Assembly (NCBI GenBank): GCA_015686845.1
Contig: JADPRS010000006.1
Span: 66,327-90,326 of the forward strand
Source: Lutibacter sp. B2
Lineage (GTDB): Bacteria > Bacillota > Clostridia > Peptostreptococcales > Thermotaleaceae
Direction of reading: 5' to 3'
DNA length: 24,000 bases
The notes beneath the pieces were generated by a model. The model saw nothing but the letters and a program-made list of their open reading frames with translations, had not been told where the DNA came from and searched no databases. Shown here in pieces: positions 9,484 to 20,428 of the stretch (positions are counted from its first letter, which is position 1; the number at the start of each line of letters is the position of its first letter). The position numbers and the translations under genes are program-made.

Positions 9484-9873
9484 GTGGATACTAATTTCGA
9501 GAATATGGAATATGGACAAATAAAAATTGCAGACGAAGTGGTAGGCACTATAGCTGGTTTAGCAGCTACTGAGGTTGCAGGTGTGGCTGGAATGAGTGGT
9601 GGTATTGCAGGTGGCATAGCAGAAATGCTAGGTAGAAAAAATTTGTCTACGGGTGTTAAAGTAGAAGTTGGGGAGCAGGAGACTGCAATTGATCTATTTG
9701 TAGTCGTAGAATATGGTGTGAAAATACCTGATGTAGCTTGGCAAATACAAGAAAGTGTAAAAAAAGCAATAGAAACAATGACGGGTCTTAATGTAATAGA
9801 AGTTAATATACATGTTCAGGGTGTAAATATAGAAAAAAATAATCAAGAAGAACCACAGTTAAGATTAAAATAA
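9484..9873 (+). CDS. asp23: Asp23/Gls24-family alkaline shock protein
   Basis: It contains KIADEVVGTIAGLAATEVAGVAGM, the signature of the DUF322/Asp23 family. The GTG start lies 7-8 nt after the SD aggagg. Confidence 0.9.
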   Translation: MDTNFENMEYGQIKIADEVVGTIAGLAATEVAGVAGMSGGIAGGIAEMLGRKNLSTGVKVEVGEQETAIDLFVVVEYGVKIPDVAWQIQESVKKAIETMTGLNVIEVNIHVQGVNIEKNNQEEPQLRLK

Positions 9874-11193: not shown

Positions 11194-11224
11194 TTACAAT
11201 GAAAAGAAGTGATTACAATGAAAA
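11191..11224 (+). repeat. Tandem direct repeat of the 15-mer tgattacaatgaaaa, period 19 nt
   Basis: The copies at 11191-11205 and 11210-11224 are identical, as read directly from the sequence. Copy 1 carries the nusB stop codon. Copy 2 carries the ATG of the next gene. Confidence 0.9.
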
Positions 11225-12192
11225 AATGTATTTTAGGTATAGATACAAGTAATTATACCACTTCAATTGCCGTAGTAGATCAAATAGGTAATATTCTAAT
11301 AGACAACAGAAGAATATTAAATGTAGTAAAAGGAAAGAGGGGATTGAGACAATCAGATGCCCTCTTTCAGCATGTTGTTAATATTCCTGATTTATTTAAA
11401 GAATGTTCTAATTTATCCATAGACTATGACATTAAAGCTGTTTGTGCAAGTAGTAAACCTCGGCCAGTAGAAAATTCGTATATGCCTGTTTTTAAAGTAT
11501 CTCAATCTTTTGGTAAAAGTATAGCTACTATATTAGGTTGTGAGTATATAGAATGTTCTCATCAAGAAAATCATATAGAGGGTGCACTTTATGCAATAGA
11601 TCATAATTTTAAAGATGAGTTTATTGCTGTACACATTTCGGGAGGAACAACTGAGATTCTTCATGTTAAAAAGAATACTATGATTGGATATGGTATTCAA
11701 ATAATAGGTGGAACATCTGATATAAGTATTGGACAATTTATTGATCGCATTGGTGTGAAATTAGGATTTAATTTTCCAGCTGGTAAGTATATGGACGAAC
11801 TAGTTATAGATACGGGAAATAAACATGACTTTGAAAGATTAAAAGTTTCTGTTAAAGATACATATATGAGTTTTTCTGGACCAGAAACAATGACCAATAA
11901 CCTAATTGATCAAGGAATAGATAAAAAGAATATATCACTTTTAACTTTTGAATGTATTGTTTATGCTTTGAAAAAAGCAATCATAAATAGTTGTAAGGCT
12001 ACAGGAATAAAAGAAGTACTCTTAATGGGCGGAGTTGCATCTAGTAAATATCTGAGAGCACATTTGGTTCGTGCGCTCGATAAAAAAAATATAGAAGTTC
12101 ATTTTGGAAATCCAAGCTACTGTACAGATAATGCAGTCGGAACTGCATTATTAGGAAGGAAAAATATTTTTAAAAAGGAGACTCAAACATGA
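11218..12192 (+). CDS. Kae1/TsaD-like (peptidase M22 / glycoprotease family, ASKHA fold) protein
   Basis: The N-terminal ILGIDTSNYTTSIAVVD is an ASKHA phosphate-1 motif. SHQENHIEGA is an HxxxH metal site like that of TsaD. GGVASSKYLR lies near the C-terminus. The ATG at 11218 is preferred over the GTG at 11209. Confidence 0.8.
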   Translation: MKKCILGIDTSNYTTSIAVVDQIGNILIDNRRILNVVKGKRGLRQSDALFQHVVNIPDLFKECSNLSIDYDIKAVCASSKPRPVENSYMPVFKVSQSFGKSIATILGCEYIECSHQENHIEGALYAIDHNFKDEFIAVHISGGTTEILHVKKNTMIGYGIQIIGGTSDISIGQFIDRIGVKLGFNFPAGKYMDELVIDTGNKHDFERLKVSVKDTYMSFSGPETMTNNLIDQGIDKKNISLLTFECIVYALKKAIINSCKATGIKEVLLMGGVASSKYLRAHLVRALDKKNIEVHFGNPSYCTDNAVGTALLGRKNIFKKETQT

Positions 12193-14272: not shown

Positions 14273-14492
14273 GTTTGAAGAAAATGACTCTTTTGAAATT
14301 TCACTAGATAAACTTGAAAAAATAGTATCTATATTAGAAGAAGGAAAACAAACATTAGATGAAATGTTATTCCTTTATGAAGAAGGCATTAAACTTTATA
14401 GGTATTGTAATAATATAATAGATAAATCAGAACAAAAAATAAAAATCCTAACAGATAACGAAACTTTTAGATCTTTTAGTATAGAAAAATAG
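14250..14492 (+). CDS. xseB: Exodeoxyribonuclease VII small subunit
   Basis: It is 80 aa long and contains FEISLDKLEKIVSILEEGKQTLDEMLFLYEEG. The TTG start lies 9 nt after the SD gaggagg. It overlaps the 3' end of xseA. Confidence 0.85.
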   Translation: MDNPSSIKFEENDSFEISLDKLEKIVSILEEGKQTLDEMLFLYEEGIKLYRYCNNIIDKSEQKIKILTDNETFRSFSIEK

Positions 14493-14515
14493 AAATTCAA
14501 AGGGGGGACAATCAT

Positions 14516-15403
14516 ATGGATATTGAAAAAATATTAAAAGAAAAACTTGAAATTATTGAAAAAGCAATGGATCATTATTTGCCTAAAGAAAAAAACTATC
14601 AAGATATTATTTTTGAATCCATGAGATATAGTATCTTTGCTGGTGGGAAAAGATTAAGACCGATACTTATGATGGCTGCTTGTGAATTTGTAAATGGAGA
14701 TATAGATGATGTAATCCCATTTGCGTGTGCAATGGAAATGATTCATTGTTATTCATTAATTCATGATGACTTGCCAGCTATGGATGATGATGATTATAGA
14801 AGAGGAAAATTAACAAATCATAAAGTTTATGGAGATGCAATTGCAATTCTTGCAGGAGATGGTTTATTAAACTATGCATATGAATTAATGATTAAATCAT
14901 CATTAGATAAGAATGAAAATAATAAAAAAATAATAGCGATGAATGAAATAGCATCTTCTGCTGGAATACATGGAATGATAGGTGGTCAAGTAGCTGATCT
15001 AATTAGTGAGAATAAAAGCATTGATGAAAAAACATTAGATTTTATTCACAAAAATAAAACAGGCGCTTTAATTATTTCATCTATCAGGACCGGTGCAATA
15101 CTTGGTGGAGCTACAGAAAAGGAACTGAATGCTTTAAGTGAATATGCTACTAATATAGGGTTAGGTTTTCAAATTACAGATGATATTTTAGATATTATTG
15201 GAGATGAAGAAAAAATAGGCAAAAAGGTCGGTAGTGATATACAAAACAATAAAGCCACTTATCCAGTGCTATATGGTTTAGATGAATCTATGAAAAAAGT
15301 TCAAGATTTATTTAATCAAAGTGTTGAATCACTTAAATCATTTGGTCAAAAATCAGACTTTTTTATCAACTTAGCAGATTATTTAGTAAAAAGGGATTAT
15401 TAA
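14516..15403 (+). CDS. ispA: (2E,6E)-farnesyl diphosphate synthase / polyprenyl synthetase
   Basis: The first Asp-rich motif is LIHDDLPAMDDDDYRRG and the second is FQITDDILD. The SD is aggggggа-like (aaagggggga). Confidence 0.9.
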   Translation: MDIEKILKEKLEIIEKAMDHYLPKEKNYQDIIFESMRYSIFAGGKRLRPILMMAACEFVNGDIDDVIPFACAMEMIHCYSLIHDDLPAMDDDDYRRGKLTNHKVYGDAIAILAGDGLLNYAYELMIKSSLDKNENNKKIIAMNEIASSAGIHGMIGGQVADLISENKSIDEKTLDFIHKNKTGALIISSIRTGAILGGATEKELNALSEYATNIGLGFQITDDILDIIGDEEKIGKKVGSDIQNNKATYPVLYGLDESMKKVQDLFNQSVESLKSFGQKSDFFINLADYLVKRDY

Positions 15404-15419
15404 TTAGGGAGGAACTAAT

Positions 15420-15863
15420 TTGTTCTTTTATCAGCAAATTTTAAAAAATAATATATTATGTGCAGCATTTTTATCTTGGCTAATGGCACAAATTCTAAAA
15501 GTAGTTATTACCCTAATTTTGGATAAACGACTTGATTTCTATAGATTTGTTGGTGCTGGTGGAATGCCTAGTTCTCATTCTTCTCTTGTTATGTGTTTAT
15601 CCACATCAATCGGTTTAAAATGTGGCTGGGACTCAACACAATATGCCATTGCCCTATCTTTTGCAATCATTATTATGTATGATGCTTCAGGTGTTAGAAG
15701 ATCCGTTGGAAAACAAGCAATGATACTCAATCAGATCATTGAAGATAGACAAAATCATAGACCTATTGGTGAAGAAAAATTAAAAGAATTAATTGGACAT
15801 ACACCTGTGGAAGTTATTGCAGGAGCAATATTAGGTATTCTTGTAGCCAACATTATAATTTGA
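15420..15863 (+). CDS. Divergent PAP2-family membrane protein (DUF212, acid phosphatase/vanadium haloperoxidase-related)
   Basis: It is 147 aa long with four predicted TM segments. It contains GGMPSSHSS and DASGVRR, motifs characteristic of DUF212. The TTG start lies 8 nt after the SD gggagg. Confidence 0.85.
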   Translation: MFFYQQILKNNILCAAFLSWLMAQILKVVITLILDKRLDFYRFVGAGGMPSSHSSLVMCLSTSIGLKCGWDSTQYAIALSFAIIIMYDASGVRRSVGKQAMILNQIIEDRQNHRPIGEEKLKELIGHTPVEVIAGAILGILVANIII

Positions 15864-15888
15864 TATTACAATAATGATATGATATAAT
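15860..15888 (+). promoter_or_regulatory. Near-consensus sigma-A promoter directly upstream of the structured RNA
   Basis: The -35 is TTGATA (15860-15865) and overlaps the TGA stop of the DUF212 gene. The spacer is 17 nt and the -10 is TATAAT (15883-15888). A TG extension lies at 15880-15881. The predicted transcription start is near 15895. Confidence 0.5.
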
Positions 15889-15904
15889 ACAGTTTACAAA
15901 AATT

Positions 15905-16470
15905 TATAGGTGGTGCAGTATTCTAGTCAGATCTGTCATTTCTGAAGGCGGGGCTAAAAATTCGTCAAAGGGCACATCGATGAAGTTCCTGGTATTTGCT
16001 GCTGACGCCCAGTCGGGGGTTCATGCTGGGAGTAAGAAGAAGGGGGCGATCCACAATGGCATGTGGGCGATGACCCTCTCTTCGCGGAGACCTCATAGAG
16101 GAATTCTATCTATCTGTGAGGATAAACCTACAATTGTGGTACAATTTGTGCTACGTGTAGCGTAGCCTGCCTTGAGTGGGGTAAGGTGGATAATATGTTC
16201 AGGTATTATATTATAATACTCTTGCAATTCGAAACCTATTCTGCAAAAGAGGCTAGGAAATGATTTGACTGTAGAGGAAAACTCCTAGACTGTTTGAAAG
16301 AAGCATATTGAGGATTACAGTGTAGATTAAGTGGTAATCTAGTCATATTTATGGCAACAGAATATAAAAAGATTTGAAGGGGAACTGCTGATTTGGCGAC
16401 AAACCAGTATCTTTTTGGGAAATCCTACTAGACCTAAACTACAAAATTTACTTAATATGTTACCACTTTA
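15905..16470 (+). ncRNA. ole: OLE (ornate, large, extremophilic) RNA; boundaries approximate
   Basis: The 630-nt gap has no credible ORF. G+C is 37/60 in 16001-16060 and 30/60 in 16061-16120, against 14/60 and 15/60 in flanking coding lines. There are many local hairpins and two nested long-range 5'/3' pairings. The synteny is diagnostic: ispA, then the RNA, then a small four-TM protein gene, then dxs-tlyA-argR-recN. No covariance-model search could be run. Confidence 0.8.
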
Positions 16471-16501
16471 TGAATTATATATAAGATTTTAGGTGATTAA
16501 T

Positions 16502-17098
16502 ATGTCAAAAGTATCAAATGAAGCTACAAATAAAAAAATAAAAAGAATATTCAGATTAAAGAATAAAAAATGGGTAATACTCATTTCTATATGGACCTTT
16601 TTTTTTGCTATTATTATGACTTTCATATCTAATATGTTATTAAAAAATGTAAATCTTATTATTGCATTTTTAATTCTTATGATAATTATTTTAATTGGAA
16701 TAATATCTGATTTAATAGGTATTGCTGTAACAGCAGCTAGAGAAAAGCCTTTTCATTCTATGGCAGCGAAAAAAATTGAAGGGGCTCGTTTTGCTGTAAA
16801 ATTAGTACGCAACGCTGGAGAAGTATCTAATTTTTGTAGTGATGTAATAGGAGATATATGTGGAATAGTAAGTGGTGCCACCGGCGCAATTCTAGTGGTT
16901 AAATTTAGTAAAATCTCCTCTATTCCTACTAGTATATTAAGTATATTTTTAGGAGGATTCATAGCATCAATTACTGTAGGCGGAAAAGCCATAGGTAAAG
17001 AAATAGCGCTTAAAAATTCAAAAGAGATTGTATTTTATGTAGGTAAATCACTATATCATATTCATAAAAAATTAGGTATTAATTTTTTGTCTAAATAA
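16502..17098 (+). CDS. oapA: OLE-associated membrane protein OapA
   Basis: It is a 198-aa, roughly four-TM protein lying immediately 3' of the OLE-like RNA and 5' of dxs. It carries paired motifs ISDLIGIAVTAA and CSDVIGDICGIVSGA. The ATG at 16502 follows the SD aggtga. The GTG at 16493 in the track lies within that SD. Confidence 0.8.
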   Translation: MSKVSNEATNKKIKRIFRLKNKKWVILISIWTFFFAIIMTFISNMLLKNVNLIIAFLILMIIILIGIISDLIGIAVTAAREKPFHSMAAKKIEGARFAVKLVRNAGEVSNFCSDVIGDICGIVSGATGAILVVKFSKISSIPTSILSIFLGGFIASITVGGKAIGKEIALKNSKEIVFYVGKSLYHIHKKLGINFLSK

Positions 17099-17149
17099 AA
17101 AATATTTCCTGTCGATATAGAGAAATACTAGACACTACGAGAAAGAGAG

Positions 17150-19036
17150 ATGGATGAGGTGAATAAATTGCTAACAGATATAAAATCTCCAGATATATGT
17201 AAAAATATAAATGATAAAGAATTGAAGTTATTAGGGGAGGATATTAGGACTTTTCTTCTAGAGAATGTTTCTAAAACAGGAGGACATCTTGCATCGAATT
17301 TGGGCGTTGTTGAATTAAGCTTAGCAATACATAGTATTTTCGATAGTTCAAAGGATCGTATTATATGGGATGTAGGACATCAAACATATGTACATAAAAT
17401 ATTAACAGGAAGAGCGAATCGTTTTGAATCTTTAAGAAAATATAAAGGATTAAGCGGTTTTCCAAAGAGATCTGAAAGTGAACATGATCACTTTGATACA
17501 GGCCACAGTAGTACATCTATATCTGCAGGTTTAGGAATGGCAAAAGCACGAGATTTAAAAAAAGAAAACCATTCTGTTATATCTGTCATTGGTGATGGTG
17601 CACTTACAGGAGGAATGGCTTTTGAAGCATTAAATCATGCAGGACATACAAATACAGAGTTAATTGTTATACTAAATGATAATGAAATGTCTATATCTCA
17701 AAATGTTGGTGCATTATCTAAATATTTAAATAGATTAAGAACCGATCCAAAATATTTTAAAGTTAAAGATGATGTAGAACATTTACTTGCTAAGATTCCA
17801 GCTTTAGGAAAAGCTGTATACAAAACTGCTGAGAAAGCAAAAGATAGTTTGAAATATCTGCTTGTCCCTGGAGCTCTTTTTCATGAATTAGGATTTACTT
17901 ATCTAGGACCTGTAGATGGACATGATATTAAAGAATTAAAACTTGTACTTAAAAGAGCTAAAAATATTAAAGGGCCAACTTTAATACATGTTATTACTCG
18001 AAAAGGTAAGGGTTATAAATATGCAGAAAAAAATCCGGATAAGTTTCATGGAATTGCTCCTTTTGACTTAGAAACTGGAAAAGTAATAACAACTGGAAAG
18101 AAAACCACTGGATATTCTTCTGTATTTGGCGAATCTATAATGGATTTAGCTAAAAAAGATGATAAGGTACTTGCTATTACTGCTGCAATGCCTGATGGAA
18201 CAGGTTTAATGGAATTTGCAAATACCTATCCTAAACGTTTTTTTGATGTTGGAATAGCAGAACAACATGCAGTTACCTTTGCTGCTGGATTAGCAGCTAA
18301 TGGATTCAAACCTTATTTTGCTGTATACTCAACGTTCTTACAAAGAGCATATGATCAAATAATCCATGATGTATGCTTACAAAATTTACCAGTCGTTTTT
18401 TGTATTGATCGTAGCGGATTAGTAGGTAATGATGGTGAAACACATCACGGAGTGTTTGATTTATCATTTTTAATGCATATGCCTAATATGACAATTATGG
18501 CTCCAAAGGATGGAAAAGAACTACAATCCATGTTGAATTTTGCGAATACGTTAGATACGCCTGTGGCAATTAGATATCCTAGAGGTAGTAGTGATGATTT
18601 TACTTCTATAAGCAATGATTATGATGTAGCAAGCAAGACAGCGGAAGTTCTTACTAAAGGAAAGGATGTTTGTATTATTGCATTAGGTAAAATGGTAAGA
18701 ATTGCTTATGAAGTAAGAATGAAATTATTAGATAAAAATATTCATTGTACTATAATTAATGCTAGATTTGCTAAACCGGTAGATGAGAAGACGATTGTTT
18801 CAGAATGTAATAATATAAAAAATATTATAACCTTAGAAGATAACGTTATAAAAGGCGGATTTGGATATGAAATCTTAAATTTATTAAATAAGTATAAACT
18901 GAATTGTAAAAATGTAAAATTATTAGGATTGCCAGATGATTTTATAGAACATGGAAACACAGATGTACTTATGAAAGCTTATGGTTTAGATGTTGAAGGT
19001 GTAACAAAATCTATAGAAGAAATGTTGAATCAATAG
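17150..19036 (+). CDS. dxs: 1-deoxy-D-xylulose-5-phosphate synthase
   Basis: It contains GGHLASNLGVVELSLAIH, DVGHQTYVHKILTGR, GHSSTSISAGLGMA and GDGALTGGMAFEALN (the TPP motif). An alternative start is the TTG at 17168, preceded by the SD gaggtg at 17156-17161. Confidence 0.95.
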   Translation: MDEVNKLLTDIKSPDICKNINDKELKLLGEDIRTFLLENVSKTGGHLASNLGVVELSLAIHSIFDSSKDRIIWDVGHQTYVHKILTGRANRFESLRKYKGLSGFPKRSESEHDHFDTGHSSTSISAGLGMAKARDLKKENHSVISVIGDGALTGGMAFEALNHAGHTNTELIVILNDNEMSISQNVGALSKYLNRLRTDPKYFKVKDDVEHLLAKIPALGKAVYKTAEKAKDSLKYLLVPGALFHELGFTYLGPVDGHDIKELKLVLKRAKNIKGPTLIHVITRKGKGYKYAEKNPDKFHGIAPFDLETGKVITTGKKTTGYSSVFGESIMDLAKKDDKVLAITAAMPDGTGLMEFANTYPKRFFDVGIAEQHAVTFAAGLAANGFKPYFAVYSTFLQRAYDQIIHDVCLQNLPVVFCIDRSGLVGNDGETHHGVFDLSFLMHMPNMTIMAPKDGKELQSMLNFANTLDTPVAIRYPRGSSDDFTSISNDYDVASKTAEVLTKGKDVCIIALGKMVRIAYEVRMKLLDKNIHCTIINARFAKPVDEKTIVSECNNIKNIITLEDNVIKGGFGYEILNLLNKYKLNCKNVKLLGLPDDFIEHGNTDVLMKAYGLDVEGVTKSIEEMLNQ

Positions 19037-19978: not shown

Positions 19979-20428
19979 ATGAAATATTCCAGACATGCTA
20001 AAATTTTAGAAATTATAGAAAATAATGAAATTGAAACGCAAGAAGAACTTGCAGAAATGCTTAAGAAAAATAATATTAAAGTAACACAAGCAACCGTATC
20101 AAGAGATATTAAGGAGTTAAGATTAATAAAAGTATTATCAAAAAATGGGACATACAAATATGCAGCTATAAAGCAACAAGAAAACACTGCATCTGAAAGA
20201 TTGGTAAAAGTATTTAAAAATGCTATATTGTCCATTGATCATGCAGGAAATATTGTAGTATTAAGAACTTTAACTGGAGCTGGAAATGCAGCATGTGCAG
20301 CAATAGATGCATTAGGAATCAAAAATATAGTAGGTACAATTGCGGGAGATGATACAATTTTCATACTTGCGAGAACTGAAAATGATATAAATGAAATAGT
20401 TAATAAATTTGAAGAATTGATAAAGTAA
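19979..20428 (+). CDS. argR: Arginine repressor
   Basis: It begins [43 protein letters not shown], a winged-helix domain. The C-terminal [12 protein letters not shown] is part of the arginine-binding oligomerisation domain. The SD is aggaggg. Confidence 0.93.

Follow-up and report, generated by a model that had tools for sequence, protein, structure and literature searches.

The 24,000-nt stretch of DNA analysed here (the window) contains a 638-nt gap between two genes, at positions 15864–16501, which raises the question of what this gap encodes. The sequence-only reading, an earlier inspection of the DNA, had found no credible ORF in it and had proposed that it specifies an OLE (ornate, large, extremophilic) RNA, a class in which conservation exceeds 97% at about 25% of positions. 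We conclude, with a probability of about 95%, that 15894–16482 on the forward strand is a functional full-length OLE RNA gene and that 16502–17098 is its partner gene oapA. The assignment of the RNA to OLE was borne out by a full-length match to the family model, covariation, conserved nucleotides, oapA, synteny and the non-conservation of the one ORF in the gap.

Identification of a full-length OLE RNA

As the sequence-only reading had suggested, the OLE covariance model was searched against the region; the accession that it had given, RF01071, was the correct one. RF01071 matched 15894–16482 (+) with a score of 485.8 bits and an E value of 6.4e-140, far above the gathering score of 50, and the match ran end to end over model positions 1–616 of 616, with no truncation. 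OLE was the sole Rfam match anywhere in the window, and no riboswitch or leader family was matched. The Rfam extent, within which the P1 helix lies at 15907–16469, is slightly wider than the 15905–16470 originally given for the RNA. The score falls inside the range of 404–558 bits spanned by 40 OLE RNAs that adjoin OapA homologues in other genomes, in the lower-middle part of it.

Comparison with the near-invariant columns of the family (95% conservation or more in 39 other OLEs) revealed agreement at 175/178. One of the three deviating columns changes a G-C to a G-U pair in P4, and the other two lie within compensatory P12 pairs, in which GC-to-AU swaps give UGUAGAUU...AAACUACA in the window versus UGCGGACU...AAGCCGCA in the consensus; pairing is kept in the window at all three. 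The window OLE is an ordinary member of a known RNA class, and had rightly been described as such rather than as a new one.

A conserved two-domain fold supported by covariation

Canonical pairs are formed in the window by 137 of the 145 retained model pairs (94%), and ten model pairs are deleted, seven of them in P7. Covariation, another of the checks that had been proposed, was scored for 174 pairs in a structure-blind MAFFT alignment of 41 OLEs. Paired cells amounted to 88.8%, compared with 40–45% in slid-partner controls, and compensatory change on both sides was found for 131/174 pairs; none of 500 shuffles reached any of these measures.

Helices P1–P3.1 are absent from the Rfam structure line and were recovered by RNAalifold from the same alignment. 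Their 5' strands occupy 15907–15942 (+) (P1 15907–14, P2 15915–26, P3 15928–31 and P3.1 15935–42), and their 3' partners lie at 16462–69 for P1, 16285–93 for P2, 16268–71 for P3 and 16257–64 for P3.1. Compensatory changes occur in 7/8 pairs of P1, 4/4 of P3 and 8/8 of P3.1.

The remaining elements follow on the same strand. The P4 hairpin (15947–15966) carries an A-rich loop, GCUAAAAA (15953–60), with the consensus sequence. The segment 15967–16035 comprises J4a/5 (AAAGGGCACAUCGAUGAAG), P5/P5.1 with the loop GCCCA (16007–11), and GGGAGUAAG; its junctions match the consensus, and it includes the k-turn region and the L5.1 kissing loop. P6/P6.1 (16036–16083), with the loop AAUGGC (16056–61), is defined by model pairs and by covariation in helices 8 and 9. 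P7 (16091–16122), an arm whose length differs greatly between homologues, is present in a short form, where the seven model pairs are deleted. The P8 hairpin (16128–16160, helix 11) shows compensatory change in 11/13 pairs. The P9 arm (16169–16253) ends in a short, A/U-only tip (16201–16222) with the core GUAUUAUAUUAUAAUAC at 16203–19. In the P10 hairpin, GAGGAAAACUC (16274–16284, helix 17), 100% of cells are paired, and in Domain 2, which contains P12–P15 (16302–16461, helices 19–24), 89–100% are; the latter includes P13, with the putative OapB site, and the P14.1 GCGA loop (16396–99). The conserved two-domain fold P1–P15 is present in the window OLE.

Base composition, local hairpins and the 61-codon ORF

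The G+C content of the OLE is 39.9%, compared with 28.8% for the whole window and 27–32% for the flanking genes. The counts reported earlier, 37/60 at 16001–16060 and 30/60 at 16061–16120, are exact, and the 23–25% given for neighbouring coding lines is slightly low. The 3' half of the OLE has 23–40% G+C per 60 nt. The minimum free energy of the region is −169.9 kcal/mol, versus −146.4 ± 6.5 kcal/mol for shuffled sequences (z = −3.6), and 0/100 shuffles were as good.

The hairpins read by hand from the letters fared unevenly. Seven arm pairs are exactly complementary as described, and 16203–16219 reads as a perfect inverted repeat centred on a U, but most of them lie outside the conserved fold, to which only 16051–55/16062–66 (P6.1) and 16203–16219 (P9 tip) belong. 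The other local hairpins were rejected as OLE helices and compete with covariation-supported pairings: 15927–31 and 15941–45 engage in long-range pairing in P3/P3.1 instead of with each other, and CCCAG at 16008–12 overlaps the conserved L5.1 loop.

The single ORF of at least 50 aa in the gap, of 61 codons at 15980–16165, could in principle be translated, with the conservation of the region reflecting a coding sequence. It starts at an ATG conserved in 40/41 homologues; this ATG, however, belongs to the RNA motif CGAUGAAG. Across 40 homologues, the ORF that begins there is closed by stops at many different positions, after 5 to 92 codons, and when the length of the corresponding region is divided by 3, the remainder is 0 in 16 sequences, 1 in 14 and 2 in 11. 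No Pfam or NCBIfam family matched the ORF, and substitutions track base-pair covariation, not codon structure. The coding hypothesis was rejected on the variable ORF length and a frame that is not kept across the 40 homologues, and we give it next to no probability. Conservation of this ORF as protein had been named beforehand as evidence that would count against an RNA; the ORF was found not to be conserved, and the original judgement that the gap holds no credible ORF stands.

oapA and its protein

The oapA gene (16502–17098, +) starts 20 nt past the end of the Rfam OLE match, preceded by the RBS AGGTGA (16491–96), and encodes a 198-aa membrane protein. Four hydrophobic segments lie at about residues 25–47, 52–77, 110–134 and 143–163, following a basic N-terminal tail with 9 K/R among the first 24 residues. 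We found 2912 OapA homologues, and a full-length OLE lies just upstream in 40/40 of the homologue loci scanned. The proposal that the small four-TM protein encoded downstream of the RNA is OapA is upheld by these segments and by the OLE genes upstream of its homologues.

An AlphaFold2 model of OapA (mean pLDDT 82.5) was compared with the PDB in a fold search. The top six matches were all CNNM/CorB/CorC membrane domains, with probabilities of 0.99–1.0 and modest similarity (TM-score 0.44–0.58, E values of 6e-3 to 0.36), the membrane domains of MpfA/CNNM/CorB-CorC transporters (PDB 7m1t, 7cfg) being the best solved-structure matches. The window OapA matched no Pfam or NCBIfam family, and Pfam CNNM was not reached at E ≤ 1, while PF01595 gave a weak match in 10/19 OapA relatives. 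A profile of the OapA family searched against PDB sequences returned nothing at E ≤ 1, and a sequence-level link from OapA to solved structures was rejected on the empty profile search and the lack of a family match. As judged from the fold search and the weak Pfam matches in relatives, which carry the link, the predicted membrane fold of OapA resembles the membrane domains of CNNM/CorB Mg2+ transporters. Unlike the MpfA/CNNM/CorB-CorC transporters, OapA consists of the membrane domain alone and lacks the CBS pair and the CorC domain.

Promoter-like site, neighbouring genes and host

The gene upstream of the RNA (15420–15863, +) encodes a 147-aa DUF212 (divergent PAP2) protein (PF02681, E 1.2e-51) and is found in the same position at 26/80 OLE-oapA loci; we treat it as genomic context rather than an established component of the system. 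The gene order described earlier, folD-xseA-xseB-ispA-RNA-four-TM protein-dxs-tlyA-argR-recN, was confirmed, except that this gene between ispA and the RNA had been missed. Because it intervenes after ispA, the RNA lies in a DUF212-oapA gap and not in an ispA-dxs gap. Among the 80 loci, OLE-oapA is neighboured by ispA in 59, dxs in 63, tlyA in 71 and xseB in 49.

A promoter-like site at 15860–15888 (+) consists of a TTGATA −35 element (15860–65), a 17-nt spacer, a TG (15880–81) and a TATAAT −10 element (15883–88). It agrees with the consensus at 11/12 positions, in addition to the TG extension, and its predicted start is at about 15894–15896. In 61/73 OLE loci, a similar box (at least 9/12, in most cases with TG) is located immediately 5' of P1, and in Marinisporobacter balticus (L002) the hexamers and their spacing are identical to those of the window. 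A proximal OLE promoter has been shown experimentally in B. halodurans (PMC3413148). The window OLE has an intact, predicted extended −10 promoter directly upstream, and it is this conserved site that supports its transcription.

No terminator-like site was found in 14400–17300, and hence none before oapA. This, together with an RBS located about 22 nt past P1, makes co-transcription of ole and oapA probable. The same two observations would also suit a long cis-acting leader (5' UTR), riboswitch- or attenuator-like, that controls oapA and dxs instead of forming a free-standing RNA. Rfam, however, gives OLE only, with no riboswitch or leader family, and the structure is self-closed, with P1 joining both ends, and lacks both an expression platform and a terminator. 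In B. halodurans, moreover, OLE occurs as one discrete, OapA-binding RNA species whose half-life is about 3 h, and deletions of ole and oapA share a phenotype (PMC3413148; PMC12265935). We consider a leader very unlikely and retain the reading of a free-standing OLE RNA.

The gene content of the window is of the spore-forming Clostridia type (spoIIIAA-AH, spoIVB). The closest relatives are Marinisporobacter, Anaerosolibacter and Thermotalea, and the proteins of neighbouring genes are 65–73% identical to those of Clostridia. The public record with an identical OapA is named Lutibacter sp. B2 and is placed by NCBI in Bacteroidota, outside the known host range of OLE, whose hosts are anaerobic or extremophilic Bacillota. 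Most likely, the assembly is mixed or carries the wrong label; a genuine Bacteroidota OLE is very unlikely in view of the sporulation genes and the identity of the neighbours to Clostridia.

Candidate protein-binding and dimer-contact features

OapB binding requires a GNRA loop and a single-nucleotide bulge (PMC7936274). The P13 stem of the window OLE (16345–65) has the GNRA loop GCAA (16354–57), closing pairs U-A and G-C, and a bulged A16351, so that UG[GCAA]CA at 16352–59 provides, as judged by its sequence, the GNRA tetraloop and the single-nucleotide bulge two pairs below it. In B. halodurans OLE, the bulged nucleotide of P13 is a U and the loop is GUGA, compared with the bulged A and GCAA loop of the window. 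The k-turn at P5 is the OapC site (PMC9723947; PMC12286853), and the k-turn junctions flanking P5, CGAUGAAG (15978–85) and GGGAGUAAG (16028–36), match the consensus in a sequence-level test. The window OLE carries the predicted RNA features for binding of both OapB and OapC.

In OLE dimers, an A-A bridge of L4 loops forms dimer bridge B1 (PMC12286853; PMC12265935), and a kissing interaction joins P5.1 and P6.1 of two OLE copies (PMC12265935). The loops of dimer bridges B1 and B2, namely the A-rich L4, L5.1 (GCCCA) and L6.1 (AAUGGC), are all present with the consensus sequence, and the GGC of L6.1 in one RNA copy can pair with GCC in the L5.1 loop of the second.

Comparison with known OLE RNAs and a shortened P9 tip

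The window RNA belongs, at full length, to the same RF01071 family as the OLE RNAs of C. acetobutylicum (577 nt, cryo-EM dimer) and Halalkalibacterium halodurans. It shares with full-length OLE the conserved nucleotides, P1–P15, the A-rich L4, L5.1/L6.1, the k-turn junctions, and the P13 GNRA loop and bulge, as well as the downstream oapA, the proximal promoter (a promoter-like site here) and the ispA...dxs-tlyA-argR-recN neighbourhood. It differs in the short P7 and in a P9 tip that is about 8 bp per strand shorter, A/U-only and without a GGCC/GAUC/AGCU palindrome.

The P9 segment between two conserved anchors measures 67 nt in the window, 75–86 nt in 70/75 genome loci and 39–45 nt in 4 loci. 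Nearly all of the 75–86-nt loci are tipped with a GGCC (or GATC/AGCT) palindrome, whereas the window tip GUAUUAUAUUAUAAUAC has no G/C palindrome and its arm is 8–19 nt shorter than in those 70/75 loci. In the nearest genome relative, Marinisporobacter balticus, the RNA is 82% identical and retains the long GGCC-tipped P9 arm. In the cryo-EM dimer, the palindromic P9 loop forms the kissing bridge B3 (PMC12286853); the window lacks this feature, a long P9 arm capped by a GGCC, GAUC or AGCU loop. The shortening and the A/U-only composition of the tip suggest that this fourth dimer contact is probably weakened or lost in the window lineage.

The same kind of A/U tip, 5 nt shorter, is found in a related metagenome contig (L081), whose OapA is 93% identical. 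In the window, the tip forms a perfect inverted repeat; in L081, which keeps the architecture of the window with further compensated changes, it is a UAUA tetraloop. L081 came from a protein-guided scan; when metagenomes were scanned for exact copies of the tip sequence, there was no match. An assembly artefact was rejected as the cause of the short tip since L081 has a short tip too, and its occurrence in both indicates that it is real.

Four other OLEs without a distal P9 arm (L034, L064, L077 and L079) lack the GGCC apical palindrome, as does the window. They have 39–45 nt between the anchors, compared with the 67 nt of the window, which include the perfect A/U inverted repeat, so the window P9 is an intermediate form. 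In OLE variant 1, which is common in the TANB77 clade, P7, P8 and P9 are shorter, the terminal OapB site of P13 is often missing and scores are 310–390 bits (Fernando and Breaker 2024). The window shares with variant 1 a P7 and a P9 shorter than the full-length consensus; it differs in its complete P8, its P13 GNRA loop and bulge, and its 485.8 bits, a score comparison that is approximate across different model builds. Membership in variant 1 was rejected on the score, P8 and the OapB site. As the B3 palindrome is absent in four other OLE loci and shortened in variant 1, it is not family-defining.

The short arms could instead mark the early loss of a decaying, non-functional OLE remnant, as could the ten deleted model pairs, the P9 tip without a dimerisation palindrome and the lower-middle position of 486 bits within 404–558. 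Such decay is hard to reconcile with agreement at 175/178 highly conserved positions, where the deviations are compensatory or wobble, with 94% canonical pairs among those retained, and with an intact promoter-like site, oapA, and putative OapB and OapC sites. The related L081 has the same architecture with further compensated changes, and the score is far above the limit of 390 bits that Fernando and Breaker set, with their own model, for 'full-length' OLE. We regard decay as extremely improbable and the window RNA as a functional OLE.

A tentative further reading, which we hold to be possible yet somewhat doubtful, is that in the lineage of the window and L081 the long G/C-palindrome P9 arm has been replaced by a shorter A/U tip, with the kissing contact lost or remodelled. 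Shortened P9 stems have already been reported in other OLE variants, which makes this reading a modest extension.

Discussion

The steps of the proposed mechanism are inferred from work on Halalkalibacterium halodurans and Clostridium OLE RNAs (PMC12265935, PMC12286853, PMC3413148, PMC7936274, PMC9723947, PMC11332333). By analogy, OLE would be made from its own promoter and also within a long nusB...recN transcript, and would accumulate as a stable RNA of about 570–590 nt. OapA, a predicted four-helix relative of the CNNM/CorB membrane domain, would bind OLE and keep the RNA at the membrane, and the particle would be completed by OapB, bound to the GNRA loop and bulge of P13, by OapC, bound to the P5 k-turn, and by ribosomal protein bS21. 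With such a particle, oapB (ybzG) and oapC (ybxF) would be expected elsewhere in the genome, and mpfA would be expected to be missing. Two OLE RNAs may pair via the A-rich L4 loops and the L5.1/L6.1 kissing loops, and the particle would help the cell to withstand alcohol, cold, excess Mg2+ and poor carbon sources. Following a published hypothesis, OLE would most likely serve a divalent-cation transporter formed by OapA as its regulatory part, and is proposed to stand in for the CBS and CorC domains, which MpfA/CNNM proteins have and OapA does not; MpfA/CNNM/CorB-CorC have been put forward in published work as all-protein functional counterparts of the OLE RNP. The transmembrane model of OLE is also a published hypothesis.

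Few bacterial ncRNAs without a known biochemical function are as large and as well conserved as OLE, and each confirmed copy provides comparative data. The window copy itself adds little, as it is found by a public Rfam model in a textbook neighbourhood and keeps nearly all conserved features. It also comes from what is likely a Clostridia genome under a Bacteroidota name, and such mislabels can yield false 'out-of-phylum' OLE matches. The short, A/U-only P9 tip in an otherwise full-length OLE of two related organisms could serve as a natural variant for the P9 dimer contact. If the contact has indeed been lost or remodelled, dimerisation in this lineage would proceed via the L4 and L5.1/L6.1 contacts alone, or not at all, and the lineage would offer a natural test of the need for the P9 arch in OLE function.

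Identification of the RNA

The 638-nt stretch 15864–16501 separates a 147-aa gene from a 198-aa gene and holds no ORF of at least 50 aa other than a 61-codon ORF at 15980–16165. The G+C content of the RNA is 39.9%, against 28.8% for the window, and the 100-nt profile tops out at 54–59% around 15950–16099. A Rfam 15 scan of the entire window returned a single match, to RF01071 (OLE) at 15894–16482 (+), with a score of 485.8 bits (gathering score 50, E = 6.4e-140), spanning model positions 1–616 of 616 without truncation. The sequence-only reading had called this gap an OLE RNA, a class already known, had given the correct accession and had suggested a search with the OLE model; the full-length match at 485.8 bits supports that reading.

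For a family test independent of the Rfam alignment, loci were gathered via the neighbouring 198-aa protein (2912 homologues) and scanned at one genome per species, giving 80 loci. A full-length OLE (404–558 bits) was found in 40 of the 40 loci scanned, out of the 80, ending 12–419 nt (mostly 50–170 nt) upstream of the protein match. In one Anaerosolibacter sp. MAG (L001:2312-2420), the first ~105 nt of OLE (P1–P4, J4a/5) are replaced by sequence resembling the 3' end of a DUF212 gene, and the Rfam score is down to 404 bits; this loss is either a real truncation or a MAG mis-assembly.

The 61-codon ORF was ruled out as a conserved coding sequence by its variable length and frame and by scattered stops. 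Its ATG falls within the conserved RNA motif CGAUGAAG, ORFs from the same ATG in 40 homologues run from 5 to 92 codons, and the length of the equivalent region modulo 3 is 0, 1 and 2 in 16, 14 and 11 sequences, respectively. A family search matched it to no protein family.

Structure and covariation

Folded alone, 15907–16469 reaches −169.9 kcal/mol, compared with −146.4 ± 6.5 kcal/mol for dinucleotide shuffles (z = −3.6; 0/100 shuffles as good). Seven of the arm pairs proposed from sequence alone were checked and all are perfectly complementary, and 16203–16219 is a perfect inverted repeat with U at its centre. The earlier observation of a structured gap therefore stands on its G+C counts, which were exact (37/60 at 16001–16060 and 30/60 at 16061–16120), on its complementary arms and on the fold relative to shuffles. 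Projection of the Rfam structure onto the window kept 145 of 155 model pairs, 137 of them canonical, the 10 absent pairs being deletions at the P7 and P9 tips.

The window RNA was aligned with 40 other OLEs by MAFFT, fitted to no structure, and RNAalifold on this alignment gave 147 pairs, 95 with compensatory changes, also recovering the long-range helices P1, P2, P3 and P3.1 that are missing from the Rfam structure line. Over the combined structure (174 pairs, 41 OLEs), standard pairs occupied 88.8% of cells, versus 40–45% with the 3' partners slid by 1–3 columns; both sides changed in 131 pairs, and 0/500 column shuffles matched any observed covariation measure. GAUUAC (16313–16318) and GUAAUC (16334–16339) are complementary, near-invariant in OLEs and unpaired in the Rfam line; covariation cannot decide on their pairing because the sequences do not vary.

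Of 178 columns with conservation of 95% or more in the other OLEs, the window agrees at 175. At the three deviating columns, one P4 pair has gone from G-C to G-U, and the other two columns belong to compensatory pairs of P12. P12 (16321–16327 with 16438–16443) reads UGUAGAUU...AAACUACA in place of the consensus UGCGGACU...AAGCCGCA, three consensus G-C pairs being A-U in the window, and this A-U change is common to the OLE of a metagenome contig, L081. The P12 swaps are compensated drift towards A/T with the helix kept, and the deviation pattern shows selection on OLE structure in an A/T-rich lineage.

The P9 tip

The segment between the conserved P9-flanking blocks measures 75–86 nt in 70 of 75 genome loci, and its tip carries a GGCC palindrome in nearly all of these 70 long-arm loci (GATC in L057, AGCT in L050). 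According to PMC12286853, GGCC, GATC and AGCT are covarying variants of the kissing loop that makes up bridge B3 of the cryo-EM dimer. The window segment is 67 nt long, and its tip, GUAUUAUAUUAUAAUAC, consists of A and U alone and forms a perfect inverted repeat with a single U at the centre and no G/C palindrome. Marinisporobacter balticus, the nearest genome relative, differs in keeping the long GGCC-tipped P9 arm, with an RNA 82% identical. An exact-match metagenome scan with the P9 tip found nothing; a protein-guided metagenome scan led to L081, where OapA is 93% identical and the OLE has a like tip, 5 nt shorter, ending UCGUAU[UAUA]AUACGA. Recurrence of the tip type in L081 shows the P9 truncation to be a real trait of the window lineage.

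In four further, otherwise full-length OLE RNAs (L034, L064, L077 and L079), the P9 segment measures just 39–45 nt and the distal arm is missing along with the GGCC kissing loop; several lineages can therefore do without bridge B3. The two of these that were scanned score 463 and 505 bits. P9 shortening is not a new phenomenon, having been described in 'variant 1' OLE RNAs, which have shorter P7, P8 and P9 stems (PMC11332333). Assignment of the window OLE to variant 1 was rejected because it scores 485.8 bits, has a complete P8 and retains the OapB site; the window RNA is an ordinary full-length OLE with a lineage-specific short A/U P9 tip.

Gene neighbourhood and transcription signals

Pfam and NCBIfam searches gave the gene order pilin-like genes, pepP, efp, spoIIIAA-AH, two Asp23-family genes, DUF2273, nusB, a TsaD-like paralogue, folD, xseA, xseB, ispA (FPP synthase), DUF212, [OLE], oapA, dxs, tlyA, argR, recN and spoIVB. 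The order read earlier was right overall and omitted the DUF212 (divergent PAP2) gene at 15420–15863 (+; Pfam E = 1e-51) between ispA and OLE; OLE therefore does not directly follow ispA. Companions of OLE-oapA among the 80 loci are tlyA (71), dxs (63), ispA (59), xseB (49) and DUF212 (26), the DUF212-OLE arrangement (26/80) occurring mostly in closer relatives. That a lipid-phosphatase-like membrane gene neighbours both isoprenoid genes and a membrane RNP may have a meaning or may be coincidence. A yqhY-type Asp23-family gene (9484–9873) and argR (19979–20428), each no more than 6.5 kb away from OLE, appear in recent literature as OLE-associated genes or candidate partners. Between nusB and folD, 11209–12192 (+) encodes a 327-aa TsaD/Kae1-like protein that scores 127–136 bits versus TsaD model cut-offs of 208–296, and may be a divergent paralogue and not a true tRNA t6A enzyme.

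A promoter-like site, TTGATA-17 nt-TATAAT with a TG extension (15860–15888, +; 11/12 positions), predicts a start at ~15894–15896, some 12 nt ahead of P1. A like box is found a short way ahead of P1 in 61/73 OLE loci across many families, with hexamers and spacing in M. balticus identical to those of the window. The conserved form is TTGAnA, 17 nt, TGnTATAAT, and its conservation exceeds that of the box-to-P1 sequence. In B. halodurans, a proximal promoter lifts OLE expression >100-fold, the 5' ends map to the P1 start and the half-life is ~3 h (PMC3413148). No terminator-like site was found in 14400–17300, and the oapA ribosome-binding site lies ~22 nt past P1, which together make co-transcription of ole and oapA likely.

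OapA and partner-binding features

Four segments of the protein encoded by oapA (16502–17098, +) are hydrophobic, and 9 of its first 24 residues are K/R. Pfam and NCBIfam searches found no family of its own, while the CNNM membrane domain PF01595 was weakly matched by 10/19 OapA relatives. An AlphaFold2 model (mean pLDDT 82.5) had as its six best solved-structure matches CNNM/CorB/CorC membrane domains (7m1t, 7m1u, 7cfg, 7cff), with probability 0.99–1.0, E-values of 6e-3 to 0.36 and TM-scores of 0.44–0.58, beyond which the search falls sharply to noise. These matches of a predicted fold agree with the published view of OapA as a CNNM/MpfA-like membrane domain without CBS and CorC domains.

OapB needs a GNRA loop and a one-nucleotide bulge (PMC7936274), and the P13 hairpin, UG[GCAA]CA with one A bulged out two pairs beneath the loop, has this geometry. 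The P14.1 loop is GCGA, the junctions forming the OapC k-turn (PMC9723947) agree with consensus, and the dimer-contact loops are all present: A-rich L4, L5.1 (GCCCA) and L6.1 (AAUGGC).

Proposed function and host

What the window itself shows is the OLE gene with its fold, the gene for its partner OapA and the features of the binding sites. By analogy with work in H. halodurans and Clostridium, a stable OLE RNA of ~580 nt would be bound by OapA at the membrane, OapB, OapC and bS21 would join the particle, which would dimerise, and cells would require the particle when stressed by alcohol, cold, Mg2+ or carbon source. The favoured mechanism is a published hypothesis in which OapA would be a divalent-cation transporter and the RNA its regulatory module, replacing the MpfA/CNNM cytoplasmic domains; as the core mechanism, we place it somewhat below even odds (roughly 0.4). 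A model proposed in the literature has P3 spanning the membrane.

NCBI files a 100%-identical OapA as a hypothetical protein from 'Lutibacter sp. B2', which its taxonomy places in Flavobacteriaceae, Bacteroidota. The host is probably a spore former within Clostridia, where the closest relatives fall: spoIIIAA-AH and spoIVB are present in the window, and proteins encoded there are 65–73% identical to those of Marinisporobacter and Anaerosolibacter. Most likely, the Lutibacter label is wrong, or the assembly or culture was mixed. Such mislabelled records could explain some of the 'out-of-phylum' OLE matches dropped by published surveys.
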